DNA of 64,000 bases, taken from positions 14,937 through 78,936 of IMG/VR virus record IMGVR_UViG_3300026488_000026; one strand, written 5' to 3'. Every line of letters starts with the position of its first letter. Positions within the stretch are counted from its first letter, which is position 1. Under the pieces are notes generated by a model. It worked only from the letters and a program-made list of their open reading frames with translations, ran no database searches and was not told the DNA's origin. The DNA comes from a virus. Shown piece by piece: positions 7,517 through 28,713 of the stretch. The translations under genes were made by a program, and so were the position numbers.

Positions 7517-8332
7517 TTAACTGATAGTGCTATCTAACGGACTACCTTGTTGATAAGTAGTTCGTAATGCTTTATATTCAATTGTAACACCATAATCATT
7601 TGTTATATTTATATTATCTAAATAAGTAAAATCCACGGCAAAACCCGATTCATTGTCACGCCAATCATTAATATTTCCCCATTCAGCTGGATAAAAAACA
7701 AAATAATATCTCAATTCACCATGATTATCAAAATTATATTTTCCTGAATACCCACTTTTTAAAGCACTATTCTCAAGTGCTTTAATTTCTTCCGCAGTTA
7801 AAGTTTCTTTTACCGAAGTTCCCCAATAAACTCTTGCTCTCCAATAAACACGAAAATCTCTACTAAATGTTTGTTCTTTTGTATTAACACCACTAATTCT
7901 CCAAGTATAATAACTATTAATTTCGCTTGAAGTTTTATCCTCCCCTATATCTAAATTTTCCTGACCATCATTTGCTAAATTACTACCTAAAATTGTATTA
8001 GCGTTTATATCTTTAATGCTAATAGAGTTTTCTTTTATATTTTCTGAATGACTTGTACTCCATTTAAAAGTTCTAATCCCACCGCTTATTGCTTGTCCTA
8101 CTTCTAATTGCGTTGATTGTCCTTCAATATAAAAACTTGTAAAAGAAGGATATTGATAAGGAAACAAAATCATTTTTAAAACTTCACAAGGTTGCATTCC
8201 ATTAATATCTGTACCAGCTTCTAATCCACCATGTTTTTCTGGTACAACTTCTTCAGTTTGCATAACACAACCACCAGACCCTCCACCAACTCCTATATCA
8301 GGGTAAATCACAGAAAATTTATTATTTGGCAT
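7517..8332 (-). CDS. Virion structural protein (Ig-like)
   Basis: ILFPYQYPSF motif, beta-rich; late promoter upstream. Confidence 0.55.
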   Translation of the reverse strand: MPNNKFSVIYPDIGVGGGSGGCVMQTEEVVPEKHGGLEAGTDINGMQPCEVLKMILFPYQYPSFTSFYIEGQSTQLEVGQAISGGIRTFKWSTSHSENIKENSISIKDINANTILGSNLANDGQENLDIGEDKTSSEINSYYTWRISGVNTKEQTFSRDFRVYWRARVYWGTSVKETLTAEEIKALENSALKSGYSGKYNFDNHGELRYYFVFYPAEWGNINDWRDNESGFAVDFTYLDNINITNDYGVTIEYKALRTTYQQGSPLDSTIS

Positions 8333-9994: not shown

Positions 9995-10023
9995 TTGACA
10001 AAATGTAAAAATTTTTTTATAAT
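9995..10023 (+). promoter_or_regulatory. sigma70 promoter
   Basis: TTGACA-17-TATAAT. Confidence 0.85.
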
Positions 10024-10064: not shown

Positions 10065-10313
10065 ATGATGACTGAATTAAGATATATTTGTGATGGATAT
10101 GATTGTTGGCAAACAGGTGATTTAGATGAAATTTGGGAAATAGATAAAGAGGTTGCTGAAAAAGTAATTGAACTTGGTTTTTGCAACGAAAGTGCTAACG
10201 CAAAAGATTTACATTTATGTAAAGAATGTATTAATGAACTTTTAAAAGAATATCCTGATATTTTTGAAGTAGAAGATGAAATGCTATGTTTTAAGGAGGC
10301 AAAAAATGACTAA
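10065..10313 (+). CDS. Hypothetical acidic protein with Cys pairs
   Basis: AGGAGG RBS; CxxxxC and CxxC. Confidence 0.7.
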   Translation: MMTELRYICDGYDCWQTGDLDEIWEIDKEVAEKVIELGFCNESANAKDLHLCKECINELLKEYPDIFEVEDEMLCFKEAKND

Positions 10314-16696: not shown

Positions 16697-18556
16697 ATGA
16701 ATAGATTGATTGAAATTATCGAAAAAGAAAAAAAAGAAAGAAGAAAAATTAAAAAAATTTTGATAAAAAGAAAAGATAAAAAAGTAGCAATTAAACCAAA
16801 TTCATTTGATAAATTTGGTCAATTGCTTAAAAATTATACAATAATTTTATACCAAATGTCAAGAGTTTTATCAAATTTTTCTAATAAAAATAAAGCAATT
16901 TTGAATAATTTGTTATTTTTATTAGAAAAATTTGATAATTCATCAAGTTTTTATAGAAACTACAAATATTTTATAATGGGAATTATAGAAGGACAAATAA
17001 ATCCTCAAGTTGTCGCTCAAAATTTTACTCAATTTTATATTACTCTTACTTCTACGCATTTTGAAACTAAAGGTTTAAGTTTTGTTGCAAATCCTTATCA
17101 AGCTACTCAACAAGATAAAGCAAGACCTAATTTAAGACATGGTAAGTTTGGTTATATAAGAAAATATGGATACGAACAAAATTTAGGTTTGGTATTTGAT
17201 GACGAAAGTTATGATGTTGTTGAATATTTTAAAATGATAACAAACGATAAATGTGCTTTTTATACGCCAAATAATAAATATTCTAAAAATTCATTAAGAT
17301 TTGATATTGATGATAAAACTTTGAATATGAATGAAATGGAAATTTTAATTAGAACTACAATGAATAAATTGAATATAAATGGTGAAGTTGAAATTATCGA
17401 AACAACAAAAGGTTGGCAATTTGCAATTTATGTGCCATTGTTTTTTATTAAAACTTTTTATGATAAAAGCGATTATGTTGTAGAACAAATTTTTATTAGT
17501 GATAGAAAAACAACGAAAGCATTTGATGCCTATCAAAAGTTTAATAGAAAGTTTATTAAAGTTTTAGAAAATTTAGCTAAAGAGCTTTTTAATGTTAAAT
17601 TAGAAGTTGATAAATTTGCTTTAGAACAAGAAAAAGTTAGAATATGGCGAAATGCAAAAGCTCATAATCATTGTTATTTTTCTGTTATTGATAATGAAAA
17701 AACAACAATTTTAGAAATGATTGATTTACCTGAAGAAGATGAAAAAGAAAATTTTATAAATTATTTTGAAACTAAAAAAGCAAATGAAATTGAATTACGA
17801 AATAAAATGCCAAATGTTTATAAATTTTTTAAAAAATATAATTTTTCAATGCCTAAAATAAATTGCTCTTTAATCGGTAAAATGAGTGAAAATACCGAAA
17901 GTTTTTATTTAACAAAAGCAATCGTTCATAAATTTGTAATTGATTATAATCATTTAGAAAATTTTGATATTTTGTTGGCTGAATTAAGCGAGGCAATTGA
18001 GCTTGATTTTAGAAATATTTATCAAGAGGAAAAATCAATTGAAAATATAAATATTGTAATTGATTATTATTTAGAAAATTTCGATATTTATCTAACCGCC
18101 CAAAAAACGGCAAGAAGTCGCATGTTTGCTAAAAGTTTAAAAGCTTTTGAAAATATAAGAAAAAATAGAAATAATTTAGGCGAAATAAAGCAAAAAATTG
18201 AAAAAAATAAAAATGAACTTGAAAAAATTAAAAATAATGATGAAAATAAATTGTCAGTTAGAAAAATGGCTAAAGAATTAGAAAAAATTGCTTTTGAATT
18301 GCCTAAATCTACGCTATATGATTATATTAGAAAAGGGAATGTTGATATTTTAATTGAAATGATTGAAATGTTATATGAATATGTTATAATTTTAATGAAT
18401 GGTAATGAAAAAGAGCAACAAAAAGCAATTCAATTGTTTGAAATAATCGAACAATTAAAAGGTGCTGTTAGATATGTTGTAACTATGATGAAATTTGGTT
18501 TGGTTAGAAATGAAAAATTGCGAAAGTTTTTTTATGTAGAAAAACGAAAGGAATGA
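16697..18556 (+). CDS. Rep/AEP primase-like protein with C-terminal HTH
   Basis: RFDID and ETTKGWQ resemble AEP motifs I/II; LSVRKMAKEL...KSTLYDY HTH. Confidence 0.5.
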   Translation: MNRLIEIIEKEKKERRKIKKILIKRKDKKVAIKPNSFDKFGQLLKNYTIILYQMSRVLSNFSNKNKAILNNLLFLLEKFDNSSSFYRNYKYFIMGIIEGQINPQVVAQNFTQFYITLTSTHFETKGLSFVANPYQATQQDKARPNLRHGKFGYIRKYGYEQNLGLVFDDESYDVVEYFKMITNDKCAFYTPNNKYSKNSLRFDIDDKTLNMNEMEILIRTTMNKLNINGEVEIIETTKGWQFAIYVPLFFIKTFYDKSDYVVEQIFISDRKTTKAFDAYQKFNRKFIKVLENLAKELFNVKLEVDKFALEQEKVRIWRNAKAHNHCYFSVIDNEKTTILEMIDLPEEDEKENFINYFETKKANEIELRNKMPNVYKFFKKYNFSMPKINCSLIGKMSENTESFYLTKAIVHKFVIDYNHLENFDILLAELSEAIELDFRNIYQEEKSIENINIVIDYYLENFDIYLTAQKTARSRMFAKSLKAFENIRKNRNNLGEIKQKIEKNKNELEKIKNNDENKLSVRKMAKELEKIAFELPKSTLYDYIRKGNVDILIEMIEMLYEYVIILMNGNEKEQQKAIQLFEIIEQLKGAVRYVVTMMKFGLVRNEKLRKFFYVEKRKE

Positions 18557-21183: not shown

Positions 21184-21419
21184 AAACAATTTGGCTTGTT
21201 AAATGCCTAAAATGTAATGATGAAGTTGAAAATGGAAAGTGCAAATGTGGAAATGTTGGCGTTAGAAAAAAAGGAAAACAAATTTTAGTTTTATTTTGTG
21301 ACGATTTAAAAACTTGCAACTTAAAAAAAGTTGTAAGATACAAAAACTTAATAATAAAAGAAAAAAGTTGGTTTCCTTTTAGTTTTGCTAAAATTGAAAA
21401 AGTTGAGATGGAGGTATAA
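21180..21419 (+). CDS. Zn-ribbon protein
   Basis: CLKC...CKCG. Confidence 0.65.
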   Translation: MKTIWLVKCLKCNDEVENGKCKCGNVGVRKKGKQILVLFCDDLKTCNLKKVVRYKNLIIKEKSWFPFSFAKIEKVEMEV

Positions 21420-21494
21420 ATGGGTTTTTATTTTAGTTTTATTTTGGTTGGTGTTGTTTGTTTGCTTTTATTTTCAATTATAAAAGGACTTTAA
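21420..21494 (+). CDS. 24-aa membrane peptide
   Basis: GGAGG RBS; MGFYFSFILVGVVCLLLFSIIKGL. Confidence 0.6.
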   Translation: MGFYFSFILVGVVCLLLFSIIKGL

Positions 21495-23890: not shown

Positions 23891-23928
23891 TTAAATTATC
23901 AAAAGTCTTTGACACTTTTTATTAAAAT

Positions 23929-23961
23929 AACGCCAAGGGGACTAATTTTCCCTTTGGCGTT
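23929..23961 (-). terminator. Intrinsic terminator of the putative pre-early operon
   Basis: AACGCCAAAGGGA...UCCCCUUGGCGUU stem followed by AUUUU. Confidence 0.7.
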
Positions 23962-24284
23962 TGAAAATCTTATTCCATAGTTTTTCTTCTGTCTTAACCA
24001 CTTCTATATTTCCTGCTTTTATTTCTTGCTCTATTGCTTGTTTGTTTCCATCTTTGAAAAAGCAAAAATCTTCCAAAAAAAATTTTTAAATATTTTGAAG
24101 TTGTAACCGAAAAATTATAAGCATTTTTCAAGAGATAGATTTTTCTTTCTTTTATAATTACTCCGTCTTTTTCTTTTTTAATATATGTTTTTCCTGCAAT
24201 AAGAGTATTATAACTTTGAAAAATAACTCCTGATTCATTTCCTATTAAAAACTGATTTTTTTGTATTTGTTTTACTTTTAGCAT
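23942..24284 (-). CDS. Conserved phage early protein (FQSY...S.TT.KY type), frameshifted at a T8 tract
   Basis: ORF track stops at 23994; removing one T gives KIFLEDF...KQAIEQEIKAGNI ending at TAG 23942. Confidence 0.6.
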
Positions 24285-24297
24285 TGTGTGTCTCCTT

Positions 24298-24714
24298 TTA
24301 GTTTACTCTATAAATATAATAAGTTTTACCATTTATAGTAATTTCTCTTTCGTCTCCATCATAACTCGCAATTACACTTCCTGCACCATCATATTTTAAT
24401 ACATCTTCAACCCAAGCATCAACATCCACATAATATCGCAAATTTTCTGGTATATCTGATTCATAGCATTCTTCATAAATAGTATATAATTCATTTTTTG
24501 CATACTCTTCTACATCATCATAATCATTAAAAACTAAAAATTCACAGCATCCACAATCTACAAATAAATAGTTGTTCTCTTTTCTGAATTCACAATCTTT
24601 CAAATCTTTTGGAAGCACTTGAAGTGCTTCCGCCAAAATTTTCAAATCATACTTATCTTGAATATTAAAATATTCTAACACTTCTTTAAAAGTTAATTCA
24701 TTATCATATAACAT
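24298..24714 (-). CDS. Acidic ArdA-like antirestriction/DNA-mimic candidate
   Basis: IPENLRYYVDVDAW resembles ArdA C-terminal motif; D/E-rich. Confidence 0.55.
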   Translation of the reverse strand: MLYDNELTFKEVLEYFNIQDKYDLKILAEALQVLPKDLKDCEFRKENNYLFVDCGCCEFLVFNDYDDVEEYAKNELYTIYEECYESDIPENLRYYVDVDAWVEDVLKYDGAGSVIASYDGDEREITINGKTYYIYRVN

Positions 24715-24726
24715 TTTACACCTCCT

Positions 24727-25632
24727 TTAATTTTCTAAATCTTCAATTATATAATCTAAAAAAGTATCTTCATCAAAATCTAATAAAATTTCGATAAAAT
24801 CATTAAGTTTATCATAATCTACTATTAAATGATAAATAAATTCGTCTTTCGCCCATTCATATAAATTTTTAAATAATTCTTTTTTGTTTTGTTTTTTATT
24901 GCAATCTTCACAATCTTTATAATAATTTTCATAAATTTCAATTAATTCTTCTTTTTTAATTTTTTTAAGAAGTTTATCAATTAATTCATCTTCGCTATAA
25001 TCAATTAAACTTGAAATAATCCAACTTAAAGTTTTATAATCTAAATTATTATAATATTTAACATCTTTTAAATACTCTTTTATGTCATCTACTAATACAT
25101 AATAATTTGTGCCATCATGATGCCTGATTATCACTTCAATTTTTTTGTATTTTTTGCAATCAAAAACTTCCACTTCAATATCACCATCCGTTGCTTTATT
25201 TAGGAAATTTTCAAAAGTGCCTATATATTGTATTTCATAATCAAAATTGCCTCGCCATGTCCCTACGCTTTCATCTACCAACCATAGGTTGCCATTATCA
25301 ATTTTTTCATTTAATTCATCTATAAAAAATTTCCAATCTTCTCTCGTCAAATCTCCTGCTTTTCTCCAATCCCAATATTCATAATCTTCTATAATTTCAT
25401 TTTTTTGTTTTTTTAAATTTTTTATTTCTTCTTTAAAATCTTTTATTGTTCTTTTAATTTTATTATATGTTACACTTCCTGTTATAACATCTTTTAACAT
25501 CTCTTCATTTTCTTTTATTTCATATTCAAGTGCTTCAATTCTTTCATTAAGTTCTTGCTCAACCAAATATTTAGCATTTTCTTCTACTACTATATCCCAA
25601 TTAAATTCCATTATTTTTCTACATTCTTTCAT
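24727..25632 (-). CDS. Acidic hypothetical protein, first gene of putative pre-early operon
   Basis: AGGAGG RBS; GTWRG and HHDGTNYY motifs. Confidence 0.75.
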   Translation of the reverse strand: MKECRKIMEFNWDIVVEENAKYLVEQELNERIEALEYEIKENEEMLKDVITGSVTYNKIKRTIKDFKEEIKNLKKQKNEIIEDYEYWDWRKAGDLTREDWKFFIDELNEKIDNGNLWLVDESVGTWRGNFDYEIQYIGTFENFLNKATDGDIEVEVFDCKKYKKIEVIIRHHDGTNYYVLVDDIKEYLKDVKYYNNLDYKTLSWIISSLIDYSEDELIDKLLKKIKKEELIEIYENYYKDCEDCNKKQNKKELFKNLYEWAKDEFIYHLIVDYDKLNDFIEILLDFDEDTFLDYIIEDLEN

Positions 25633-25661
25633 TTGTGCCTCCTTTTATTTTTGTTAATGAC

Positions 25662-25690
25662 ATTATAAAAAATTTTTTATAAAATGTCAA
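25662..25690 (-). promoter_or_regulatory. sigma70 promoter with palindromic spacer
   Basis: TTGACA-17-TATAAT; TTATAAAAAATTTTTTATAA palindrome. Confidence 0.9.
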
Positions 25691-25959
25691 GAATTTTTTA
25701 TAAAAAATATAAAAAATTTTTTATATTTTTATTTTTGTATATACATTAATATATAAGAAAAATTTTTCCGCTCTTTCATTTTTTAGTTTTTTATTTATAA
25801 AAAATAAATGCCAAACACCAAATTTTTCATTCGTTTTACTTTATAAAAAATTTGAAAATTTTTCAAAATTTTTGTATATTTTACTATTACCGCTTTTTTA
25901 ATAAATTTTGAAAATTTAATTTTATTACTATTACCGATTTTTTAGTAGATTTTAAAAGT

Positions 25960-26062
25960 TTTAAATAGGAGGCACAAAAGGCAAAAAGCTCGAAATTTCG
26001 GAGGCACAAATGAAATGCTATAAATAAGGAGACACAATTTCTTTTTTGGCTTTTTGCCTTTT
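25960..26062 (-). ncRNA. Candidate multi-target anti-RBS sRNA
   Basis: sigma70 promoter with no ORF; 14-bp stem 25976-25989/26049-26062; three anti-SD modules matching RBSs at 25632, 24284 and 24714. Confidence 0.65.
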
Positions 26063-26064
26063 AA

Positions 26065-26094
26065 ATTATAAAAAATTTTATAATTACTTGTCAA
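26065..26094 (-). promoter_or_regulatory. sigma70 promoter of the candidate sRNA
   Basis: TTGACA-18-TATAAT. Confidence 0.8.
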
Positions 26095-26131
26095 GAATTT
26101 TTACAAAAATGTAAAAAATTTTTATAAAAAA

Positions 26132-26429
26132 CTACTTTTTTGATAGTTTTTCTTTTTTCTTATTAAAATGTTCTACAATATGACCCATTCTACGCTTAAT
26201 TAAAACACTTACAATTGCTCCTAATGTTCCGCCTAATACAAATAATAAAATAATCTTTTTTAATTATCCCATTGCTAATACCTAATCCTATGCTTGTAAT
26301 CCAAAGTATTTGAATTATAAAAGCAAACACCCCTGTTTTAAAAATTGATTTTTCAACTACAACATACACACTATATGTTCTCATAATTTGAAATAAAAAA
26401 TTAAAAAAGAAAACTAAAAAAGCCGTCAT
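26132..26429 (-). pseudogene. Small membrane protein (DUF5698-like), frameshifted near 26245
   Basis: Alternative frame gives a third TM, LFVLGGTLGAIVSVLI, ending at TAG 26132. Confidence 0.55.
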
Positions 26430-27778
26430 TTTTCCGCCTTTGTAATTATAAGTTCTTCTAAATAATCAGCCTTATCTTTATCAACTCTAAACTCTTTAAA
26501 TCTTGGAAAATCCATAACTAATTGTTTTTTGCCGTTTGAATTTGTTATATAATACAAATCCGTATAATAAATTTCTACAAGTTTGCCTATCAATTTATCT
26601 CCATTAAGCTCTCTAATTTTATCAGTTAAACCACTTCCCACTTTTATTTTAAATTTTCCATCTTCAGTTTGACAAATAAATCCGCCTATTTTACCTTCAT
26701 ATTTCCCTTCACCTTCAAACCAATCTATAATCCTTAAAGTGCAACTTTCAAGTCCTTTATACTTAATCCATTTTTTACTTCTTTTTTTCTCATAAATTCC
26801 ATTCAAATCTTTAAGCATAATTCCTTCGCCTCCTTTATTTTTAACTTTTTCAAATAAACTTTTAACTTGCTCAAAATTATCACAAACGAATTGGTCTATT
26901 AATTTGATGCTTAAATTTTCAACCCCCCTTAAATTTTGACCCCCCTTATTTTCAAAATCTAAACCTCCCAATATTTTTAAAAGTCTAACCCGCCTATCTT
27001 TTAAAGTCGGACAATAAAATTCAAGATTATTCCACTCTCTAATTGTAAGATAATCAAAACAATGAAAATTAAGTTCTTGTTTTTCTTTTTCAGTTGCGGT
27101 TTCTTTTATAACTTTAGTTACAAGTCCTGATGTTTCTTGTCTTGTTTTTGCAAGTAATTCGCCATCATAATAACCATCTGGTTTGTTTTTTAGTTCTTTA
27201 AAAATATATGGTAAATTTAAAACACTACCATTGTATGTAATAGCATTTATTTCATCTTTATTTTTGTAAATAAGACATCTAACGCCATCTAATTTTTCTT
27301 CTACTGCAATTGGAAATTTAATTTCATTAATATCAATTTTATTAATGTCATATGCTTTCATAATAGTTGTATCTGGTATAAACTCATAACCAAGTGCCTC
27401 ATTTATTAACTTAACTTTAACTCCAAGTTTTAATTTTTTAGTTAAAATGTCTTGATAATATTTTCCTTCAATTCCACACTTTGATAAAAATGAAATTACC
27501 TTTTGTTCGGCTTCATTACTTCTTGCTTTAAGATTTACAAGATAATCAACAAGTTCTAAAAATTTATTAGGAGGTATAAGAAAACCACCATATTTAAATT
27601 GAATTTCTGGTAGTTTTCTAATATGCGTATTTAAAAAAGGATTGATTAGAGTCTTTAATAAATCAAGAAAATAAGGAACATCTTTATATTCTTGAATTAT
27701 TTTTATTTTTTCTTTTTTAGAGTTTGTTAGCATCAATTTATCAAAACCTGAAACCCATTTAAAATTATCTTTTTTCAT
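26426..27778 (-). CDS. lig: ATP-dependent DNA ligase
   Basis: EEKLDGVR, DGEL, EGIMLK, WIKYK, VGSG, FPRF. Confidence 0.95.
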   Translation of the reverse strand: MKKDNFKWVSGFDKLMLTNSKKEKIKIIQEYKDVPYFLDLLKTLINPFLNTHIRKLPEIQFKYGGFLIPPNKFLELVDYLVNLKARSNEAEQKVISFLSKCGIEGKYYQDILTKKLKLGVKVKLINEALGYEFIPDTTIMKAYDINKIDINEIKFPIAVEEKLDGVRCLIYKNKDEINAITYNGSVLNLPYIFKELKNKPDGYYDGELLAKTRQETSGLVTKVIKETATEKEKQELNFHCFDYLTIREWNNLEFYCPTLKDRRVRLLKILGGLDFENKGGQNLRGVENLSIKLIDQFVCDNFEQVKSLFEKVKNKGGEGIMLKDLNGIYEKKRSKKWIKYKGLESCTLRIIDWFEGEGKYEGKIGGFICQTEDGKFKIKVGSGLTDKIRELNGDKLIGKLVEIYYTDLYYITNSNGKKQLVMDFPRFKEFRVDKDKADYLEELIITKAEK

Positions 27779-27780
27779 TT

Positions 27781-28713
27781 TTAGCCCTCCTTTGGTAAAA
27801 ATTTAAAAATATGTTTTATTACTTCTAAAGTCCAAGCATTTCCTATTAATTTATGTCTTTCTCTATTTGGTATTATTATAGTTTTATCCTCAATAATACC
27901 AAATTTAGTATAATTATCAGGCAAAGTTTGTAATCTTTCACACTCAATAATATCAAGCATTCTAAATTTTTTATTTTTTATATCAATAAGATATTTATTA
28001 TGATGATGTGTTCCTGTAGTAAGACAAGCACTTTTATCTGAATTTAAAAAAGAAAACATATTTTTTTCCAACCTACTTTTATTACCATACTTATTATACA
28101 TAAAAGGTAATAATTCTCTATCGCATTTTTTATTTAATAAAACTTCTTTTAATTTTATATTTTTATCTTCTGGCAAATCTTTAATAGGAATATTAGTCCA
28201 ATAAAGTCTTGGACGCCTTTGGGCTGACACAAGTTTGCTATCTATAAGTATAGGCTCTATTTCTAATTCTTTTGAAATAATATTTTTCCATTTTTTAGCC
28301 ATTTTAACATTTTCAAGTAAAAAATATTTAGGTTTTACTTCTTTTAAAATACGGACATATTCCCAAAATAAATAAGATTGTCCTTCAAATTCAAAACCTT
28401 TTTCTTTTAATTCTAAATATTGCTCTAATGAAACTATTTCGATTTTTTCTTTTGTAATCATTCCTTGTTGTTTACCAGCAAAACTAAAATTTTGACAACT
28501 ACTACCTCCTATTAATAAATTAATATTTTTAAATTTATTTCCATCAACCTCTCTTATATCTCCAATAAAAATAGTATTAGGAAAATGGTATTTAGTTACA
28601 CCAATAGCAAATTTATCAATTTCACTTGCATAATATTTATCTATTTTAAAATTAAGTTCTTTCAAAGCAAGTTGTCCTATTGATATACCATCAAACAAAC
28701 TTAATATATTCAT
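27781..28713 (-). CDS. C5-cytosine DNA methyltransferase
   Basis: SLFDGI, GGSSCQ, LENV, AQRRPRLYW, ERLQTLP, IGNAW. Confidence 0.92.
   Translation of the reverse strand: MNILSLFDGISIGQLALKELNFKIDKYYASEIDKFAIGVTKYHFPNTIFIGDIREVDGNKFKNINLLIGGSSCQNFSFAGKQQGMITKEKIEIVSLEQYLELKEKGFEFEGQSYLFWEYVRILKEVKPKYFLLENVKMAKKWKNIISKELEIEPILIDSKLVSAQRRPRLYWTNIPIKDLPEDKNIKLKEVLLNKKCDRELLPFMYNKYGNKSRLEKNMFSFLNSDKSACLTTGTHHHNKYLIDIKNKKFRMLDIIECERLQTLPDNYTKFGIIEDKTIIIPNRERHKLIGNAWTLEVIKHIFKFLPKEG

Follow-up and report, generated by a model that had tools for sequence, protein, structure and literature searches.

Classic cases of small regulatory RNAs in bacteriophages, such as c4 of phage P1, come from temperate phages; c4 is cut from an operon transcript and serves lysogenic immunity. 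Phage T4 encodes a protein, RegA, which turns off translation of several early mRNAs by binding at their start sites. Post-transcriptional control by small RNAs that phages themselves encode has been little explored (bioRxiv 10.1101/2024.10.31.621285). In the summary given in PMC8198154, which cites Citron and Schuster (1990), the c4 RNA of phages P1 and P7 (Rfam family C4) is a phage-encoded, non-overlapping antisense RNA located upstream of its targets on the same strand; through short seeds it base-pairs to the region where ribosomes bind in the downstream genes (icd/ant), and it thus blocks their expression. In bacteria, the Alpha-r14 'cuckoo' sRNAs, such as NfeR1, carry three redundant unpaired anti-Shine-Dalgarno (anti-SD) motifs and occlude the ribosome-binding sites (RBSs) of several mRNAs (PMC10746234). 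In the streptococcal csRNAs, a single unpaired stretch combines an anti-SD with an anti-AUG (CAU) sequence (PMC3091779).

The locus described here belongs to an uncultured phage, and the sole public sequencing run that contains this stretch is a DNA run of a hydrothermal vent metagenome. The window (the whole stretch of DNA that was analysed, 64 kb long) is part of a 78.9-kb phage genome that was assembled with a 127-bp end overlap and has a G+C content of about 25%. The phage encodes a family A DNA polymerase, a ribonucleotide reductase, an ATP-dependent ligase and a C5 methylase. No tyrosine integrase was found in the phage, which looks virulent, and searches for tRNA and tmRNA genes also found none. 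A blastn search of positions 23900-27800 against GenBank phages gave no match, and the nearest named phages by DNA polymerase are N4-like, with less than 30% identity. In the reading that we prefer, and to which we give about even weight, an element upstream of a three-gene operon of this phage encodes an operon-specific anti-SD repressor RNA, that is, a new RNA family with a known mechanism. Judged from the sequence, such an RNA probably throttles translation of the accessory operon. The features concerned are listed below, where L001 and L002 denote the corresponding loci of two related phages.

26065-26094, minus strand: P2, an orphan sigma70-type promoter (TTGACA-18-TATAAT, 12 of 12 positions matched)
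26049-26062, minus strand: 5' arm of the closing stem, an exact 14-bp inverted repeat with which the MFE fold closes
26026-26036, minus strand: box 1, UGUGUCUCCUU, a variant of the anti-SD seed with U where the other boxes have C
26000-26015, minus strand: box 2, anti-SD plus anti-AUG, a 16-nt perfect complement of 25627-25642
25976-25989, minus strand: 3' arm of the closing stem, followed by the U run UUUUGUG
25967-25979, minus strand: box 3, UUUUGUGCCUCCU, in the single-stranded 3' tail (predicted unpaired probability about 0.9)
25691-25966, minus strand: AT-rich spacer between the element and P1, 276 bp
25662-25690, minus strand: P1, promoter of the target operon (12 of 12 matches here and also in L001 and L002)
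25627-25643, minus strand: target 1, SD GGAGGCACA plus AUG of the gene for a 301-aa protein (24727-25632)
24714-24726, minus strand: target 2 (weak), SD GGAGGUGUA of the gene for a 138-aa ArdA-like protein (24298-24714)
24287-24297, minus strand: target 3, SD AAGGAGACACA of the gene for a 96-aa protein (23994-24284)

Perfect TTGACA-N16-18-TATAAT sites occur nine times in the window, where 0.20 were expected. These sites have flanks in common, namely AAAAATTC before the -35 box and an A-run followed by a T-run before the -10 box, and six of the eight perfect promoters other than P2 are followed by a first SD-plus-start at 18-64 nt. Based on this excess, the common flanks and the spacing to start sites, the nine sites are very probably the phage's promoters for host RNA polymerase. 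One of them (16833-16862, minus strand) lies inside the 5' end of a plus-strand gene encoding a 619-aa protein (16697-18556) and fires across the RBS of that gene. The next SD-plus-start, 469 nt away, is that of a minus-strand gene for a 520-aa protein, and this promoter may produce a cis-antisense RNA or a long leader.

P2 has the upstream AAAAATTC of this family and a spacer that ends in A4-T6. A first-pass annotation, in which only the sequence was read, had described it as a TTGACA-18-TATAAT promoter firing into ORF-less sequence; this is borne out by the perfect 12/12 match and by the distance of 421 nt from P2 to the first SD-plus-start. P1 is located 18 nt before the RBS of the three-gene operon and P2 a further 400 nt upstream, in tandem and on the same minus strand. 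At the level of prediction, the element therefore has the promoter of its own and the lack of coding capacity that characterize a base-pairing sRNA.

The start of the predicted RNA, placed at 26059 or 26058 from the spacing to the -10 box (6-7 nt after it), would fall on the conserved GGC of the 5' stem arm. The perfect 14-bp stem reported earlier is indeed an exact inverted repeat, although a start at 26059 or 26058 means that only 10-11 of its 14 pairs lie inside the RNA. In the MFE fold, this stem encloses a largely open multiloop that contains boxes 1 and 2, and box 3 is located in a free tail. The fold energy of the element is not exceptional in comparison with shuffled sequences (z -1.76; -1.22 for the L001 version). 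These folds are single-sequence predictions, a two-sequence RNAalifold having been dropped for misplaced gaps. A scan for consensus terminators between P2 and P1 found none, either here or in L001. The closing stem followed by UUUUGUG is a possible, atypical terminator and the sole candidate for the 3' end of the RNA, and box 3 belongs to the RNA only if transcription continues beyond the stem. An Rfam cmscan gave no match in the whole window at the gathering score and only noise at E <= 10 over positions 25600-26200.

The AT-rich spacer downstream of the element contains two direct repeats of GGTAATAGTA (25882-25891 and 25926-25935) and a 10-bp palindrome, TGTATATACA (25736-25745). All three phages, and thus also the one without the RNA element, have kept these repeats and this palindrome, which may represent an operator or an origin-like feature.

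Three boxes of the form UGUG(C/U)CUCC are carried by the predicted RNA, and the pairings that had been noted for them are all present in the sequence. Box 1 is an 11-nt perfect complement of the RBS of the 24284 gene (24287-24297), with a helix of -16.7 kcal/mol (rank 3 of 96 start sites) and a predicted unpaired probability of about 0.5-0.9; the 9-mer GGAGACACA occurs only twice in 78.9 kb, in the 24284 RBS and in the element. All 16 nt of box 2 are perfectly complementary to the start region of the 25632 gene, where they cover SD and AUG, and the helix (-25.5 kcal/mol) ranks first of the 96. This 16-mer is the element's best non-self match in the 78.9-kb genome (E 0.002), and of the four genomic occurrences of GGAGGCACA, three are at the 25632 RBS and in the element. 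Box 3 can form either 12 perfect pairs with 25632-25643 or 13 pairs, including three G-U pairs, with 24714-24726. The proposal that the RNA matches all three downstream genes is thus sustained for 25632 and 24284, where complementarity is strong, but less so for 24714, whose helix of -12.7 kcal/mol (rank 5 of 96) is weak and is reached by 8 of 500 shuffled RNAs.

These ranks come from an ungapped scan, allowing Watson-Crick and G-U pairs, of the predicted RNA against SD-bearing start sites (96 here and 110 in the L001 phage). The background over the 96 sites in the window is -7.8 kcal/mol on average, with a standard deviation of 3.3, and the three operon genes take ranks 1, 3 and 5; rank 2 goes to an internal TTG, which is unlikely to be a genuine start. 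No dinucleotide shuffle of the RNA reached the observed helix for 25632 or for 24284, or the sum for the three genes (0/500 in each case). The net cofold gain for the three targets was -21.0, -14.1 and -12.6 kcal/mol, versus -8.4 +/- 2.8 kcal/mol for 35 control start sites. Energies from RNAduplex, which allows loops, were inflated by side pairings in AT-rich sequence, and the ungapped helices were used in their place. With the boxes predicted to be mostly unpaired, the computation points to an accessible seed that is complementary to start sites beyond chance. Genome-wide, matches of 11 to 13 nt are by themselves no better than chance (E of about 1.5 for an 11-mer), and the box 1 match owes its significance to its position. 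Further, the RBSs of the operon resemble one another, which may reflect common descent or gene conversion, and for this reason the rank statistics are not independent tests.

Two start sites outside the operon also resemble its targets. A 24-aa hydrophobic ORF, MGFYFSFILVGVVCLLLFSIIKGL (21420-21494, plus strand), is coupled to the stop codon of an upstream zinc-ribbon-like ORF, and its RBS, GGAGGUAUAAAUG (21410-21422), is the sole real-looking RBS of the YRYA type outside the operon. Its helix with box 2 (-20.3 kcal/mol) would rank second in the genome, and this ORF is a possible fourth target. The other is the start site of a gene for a 67-aa membrane protein (10276-10308, plus strand), downstream of a perfect promoter at 9995; this 10306 start site has ATGAAATGCTAT plus TAAGGAG in common with the plus strand of the element. 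It was rejected as an additional target in spite of a cofold of -20.2 kcal/mol, as its 12-mer match is at chance (E 0.38) and the gene has no homolog in the L001 phage; such a score at a start site outside the operon is nevertheless a point against the preferred reading.

Relatives were sought in viral_contigs with the 301-aa protein, the ligase and an alignment of the ArdA-like protein, and all three returned the same two contigs only. The ArdA-like alignment found nothing in metagenome_contigs and genome_contigs, and exact box-2 patterns in viral and metagenome contigs retrieved only the L001 contig plus ordinary gene starts. In a search of 5.8 billion proteins, only three ligases were found at 77% identity or more, with another ligase group at 48% identity. 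The L001 ligase is 87% identical to that of this phage and the L002 ligase 78%.

The L001 phage has an ortholog of P2 at 7706-7734 with a 12/12 match. All three boxes are kept, with the core UGUGCCUCC, and the two arms of the stem have matching deletions of 1 nt, so that 10 bp can still form; here as in L001, the predicted +1 is the first base of the stem that is conserved. The covariation in relatives that had been proposed as a check stays anecdotal, because only two genomes carry the element and the element, 87% identical between them, is no more conserved than the flanking DNA (80-86%). The difference of C versus U in box 1 and of G versus A in the SD was rejected as true covariation, since the two target genes are not homologous. 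In L001, the operon comprises at least seven cistrons, of which two are insertions in front of the gene for the 301-aa protein, and all of its RBSs are of the form GGAGG-Y-R-C/U-A. The six called operon genes occupy ranks 1-6 of 110 start sites, with helices of -25.6 to -17.2 kcal/mol (background mean -7.4, standard deviation 3.9), and L001 box 2 pairs with the first two cistrons, where it covers SD and AUG in helices of 18 and 16 nt with one G-U pair each. The first-pass annotation had assigned one arm of the RNA to each gene; this scheme is contradicted by L001, where three boxes sharing one core face at least seven cistrons.

L002 keeps P1, the spacer repeats and the ArdA-like gene, but both the element with its promoter P2 and the gene for the small membrane protein are missing. 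The RBSs of the L002 operon are of an ordinary kind (GGAGCGAAA, GGAGGAAUA and GGAGAAAAA), and no inverted copies of them were found in the L002 genome. The RNA module and the private RBS style occur jointly or not at all, as a comparison of the ArdA-like orthologs shows directly: their RBS goes from GGAGGUGUA here through GGAGGUACA to plain GGAGGAAUA in L002. The earlier proposal of a minus-strand RNA complementary to the operon RBSs is strengthened by the presence of P2, stem and boxes in L001 and by the absence of the element together with the RBS type in L002.

Some details of gene content also differ among these phages. The small membrane-protein gene that follows the ligase gene (26130-26429, minus strand) encodes 77 aa here versus 100 aa in L001. 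The truncation stems from an 8-nt length difference near 26240, downstream of which the sequence still aligns with the C-terminal coding part of L001, and the 77-aa version is a frameshifted gene or an assembly error. At 9745-9783 of L001 (plus strand), the RBS GGAGGUGCA precedes an ORF that is just 11 codons long and is possibly a decayed cistron; no gene was called in the roughly 330 nt that separate it from the ArdA-like gene.

The products of the target operon are an ArdA-like protein and acidic proteins. The 138-aa protein has a weak Pfam match to ArdA (E 3e-4), which is below the cut-off, and the 301-aa protein has no Pfam or PHROG match and no usable ESM Atlas match. Gene content under P1 differs in the three phages, with three genes here (23994-25632), at least seven in L001 (8174-11450) and four in L002 (8107-9506), and the ArdA-like gene is the only one common to all three. 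This pattern is typical of a hyperplastic accessory or anti-defence region.

In both phages that carry the element, the pattern GGAG(G/A)YRYA-N1-5-ATG is largely confined to the operon, and outside it this phage uses GGAG followed by an A/T-rich spacer. Of the seven matches in this phage, the operon RBSs account for three, the element's copy for one and the 24-aa ORF for another. The L001 phage has nine matches (seven operon RBSs, the element's copy and one elsewhere), and in the L002 phage, which is without P2 and the element, no match lies in the operon. The promoter, the complementarity, its operon specificity, its conservation and its co-occurrence with the RBS type are established here.

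All six boxes of the two phages carry G-U-G opposite the variable triplet of the target, which is CAC, UAC, CAU, UGC or UGU. These target variants all arise by transitions, after which a minus-strand RNA can still form a G-U or Watson-Crick pair. This is one of several grounds on which the minus strand is favoured, since the boxes can pair with every target variant only as minus-strand RNA, although the few independent events involved make this argument suggestive. The minus strand is also favoured because P2 is perfect and conserved, while the candidate plus-strand promoter is at chance and decays in L001, and because transcription is predicted, in both phages, to start at the conserved portion of the stem.

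In the mechanism that we infer, host RNA polymerase would transcribe P2 to give a minus-strand non-coding RNA of about 85-110 nt, protected by a closing stem of 10-14 bp at its 5' end. Two single-stranded boxes would be displayed in the enclosed multiloop and the third in the 3' tail. Each box would act as an extended anti-SD seed, UGUG(C/U)CUCC, with box 2 also covering the start codon, and would pair with the private RBS type GGAG(G/A)YRYA on every cistron of the P1-driven hypervariable accessory operon. Such pairing would block 30S binding, and translation would be throttled or progressively shut off, mainly in trans; the same pairing of box and RBS could also take place in cis within any read-through transcript. 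Action in trans is favoured by the dedicated promoter and the number of targets. Since only G and U would stand opposite the variable positions, any transition in a target would still leave a paired seed. The three near-identical boxes of L001, facing seven cistrons, suggest that the boxes are redundant copies of one wobble-tolerant G/U seed, and box 2 is most likely specialised for the first cistron after P1. Two constitutive consensus promoters would make repressor and target together, an arrangement with no obvious regulatory logic and to that extent a point against this reading. The RNA could act as a throttle from the start, or bring about a progressive shut-off as stable RNA accumulates; the 'pre-early' timing assigned to the operon in the first-pass annotation would, like transcription itself, the RNA ends and repression, belong to this inferred part. 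A wider proposal, which we put forward tentatively, is that the phage marks an accessory, probably anti-defence, operon with the private SD extension GGAGGYRCA and controls every cistron through one dedicated RNA. Such an RNA would be a counterpart of T4 RegA, and the module and RBS style would be gained or lost together.

A cis-acting function would account for the complementarity and the co-occurrence as well as the trans reading does. The element would then be an anti-SD leader or translational insulator and not a free small RNA: transcripts started at P2, or reading through from the ligase operon, would carry the boxes at their 5' side and fold back on the operon RBSs, and only mRNAs initiated at P1 would be translated. 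The lack of a terminator between P2 and P1 agrees with this, and in the MFE fold of a modelled 470-nt read-through RNA all 16 nt of box 2 are paired to the first start site. However, a dedicated promoter would be superfluous for an insulator, and P2 is perfect, conserved and has its +1 at the foot of the stem. Three boxes could not simultaneously hold seven L001 cistrons over 3.3 kb, and untranslated AT-rich leaders of more than 400 nt would be likely to end prematurely. We consider this explanation unlikely. Quite unlikely, in our view, is that there is no RNA function at all and that the RBS-like copies on the plus strand are by-products of recombination at conserved promoter-RBS junctions in a hypervariable region where genes are shuffled, with P2 a duplicated early promoter that has no gene. 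The differing gene content of the operon in the three phages (3, at least 7 and 4 genes), the flanks common to P1 and P2, an element no more conserved than its surroundings and the chance-level 11- and 12-mers would all fit such an origin. Deletions would hardly yield three inverted RBS fragments within 70 nt and a stem with compensated indels, and the homology ends at the boxes. Further, all six boxes keep the G-U-G allele that pairs with every target variant, and among the three phages the RBS type is found where the element is and missing where it is not.

Function could also reside in the plus strand, whose RNA would present three mimics of start sites, or the mini-ORF MKCYK, and would serve as a leader peptide or as a decoy to capture a factor with affinity for the GGAGGYRCA start sites of the operon. 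The mini-ORF is kept in L001 as five codons plus TAA (MKFYK), and the predicted fold of the plus strand is slightly more favourable (-26.3 kcal/mol, z -2.36). The weak plus-strand promoter that had been suggested near 25852-25880 does match the consensus at 10 of 12 positions, but sites of this quality are at chance (29 found versus 25 expected) and it falls to 9/12 in L001. Two of the three SD copies are without a start codon, the change from Cys to Phe in the mini-ORF is non-synonymous, and a decoy gives no reason for boxes that hold only wobble-universal alleles; a plus-strand role therefore seems very improbable. Least credible of all is a replication-origin or insulator feature, in which transcription from P2 activates or primes an origin, or the long palindrome is a terminator or a barrier separating the operons, and the RBS complementarity is incidental. 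The tandem promoter layout resembles that of origin regions, such as the primary origin of T7, and the two GGTAATAGTA repeats and the 10-bp palindrome of the 276-bp AT-rich spacer are kept in all three phages. Yet the repeats and P1 persist in L002 without P2 and the element, which shows the element to be separable, and the operon-specific complementarity would be left unexplained.

If a repressor RNA directed at the operon RBSs is the correct reading, an apparently virulent phage would devote one RNA to the silencing of an entire accessory operon. A 4-nt extension of the SD would confer the specificity, and the seed would tolerate drift of its targets, giving a simple testable rule by which a phage addresses a subset of its own genes at the ribosome. 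Such a system would also supply a compact orthogonal RBS/anti-RBS pair for synthetic biology. Metagenomic phages could be searched for the same image, namely an orphan consensus promoter, clustered CCUCC boxes and matching private RBSs.

Among known systems, c4, as described in PMC8198154, has the same layout: the element is phage-encoded, does not overlap its putative targets, is on the same strand as the three start sites at a distance of 370-1750 nt upstream, and has short seeds complementary to the ribosome-binding regions of the genes downstream. The Rfam C4 model gave no match (gathering score in the window; E <= 10 over 25600-26200), and there is no homology in sequence or structure. 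Unlike c4, the element comes with a consensus promoter of its own and repeats one anti-SD seed three times, facing every cistron of the operon; c4 serves lysogenic immunity, and the element is found in a phage that has no tyrosine integrase and looks virulent. As with T4 RegA, a phage-made factor is proposed to act on multiple start sites; unlike the RegA protein, the proposed factor is an RNA and its specificity lies in a 4-nt SD extension.

The likeness to NfeR1 is that of one small RNA with three redundant anti-SD motifs in unpaired regions. The NfeR1 family is bacterial and chromosomal, with the motif CCUCCUCCC in three hairpin loops and a broad regulon (PMC10746234), whereas the element would present UGUG(C/U)CUCC in a multiloop and tail to one adjacent phage operon with a private SD extension; the predicted RNA does not have the three hairpins with CCUCCUCCC in the loop that define Alpha-r14, and no Rfam match was obtained. 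With the csRNAs the element has a single feature in common, the anti-SD plus CAU of box 2. The csRNAs consist of two stem-loops with a single unpaired region, are expressed from CiaR-dependent promoters and target host genes (PMC3091779); two stem-loops flanking one anti-SD/anti-AUG stretch are not seen in the element, and the Rfam search matched no csRNA family model. The new twist relative to these systems is the combination of a private SD extension within one operon and a wobble-tolerant seed.
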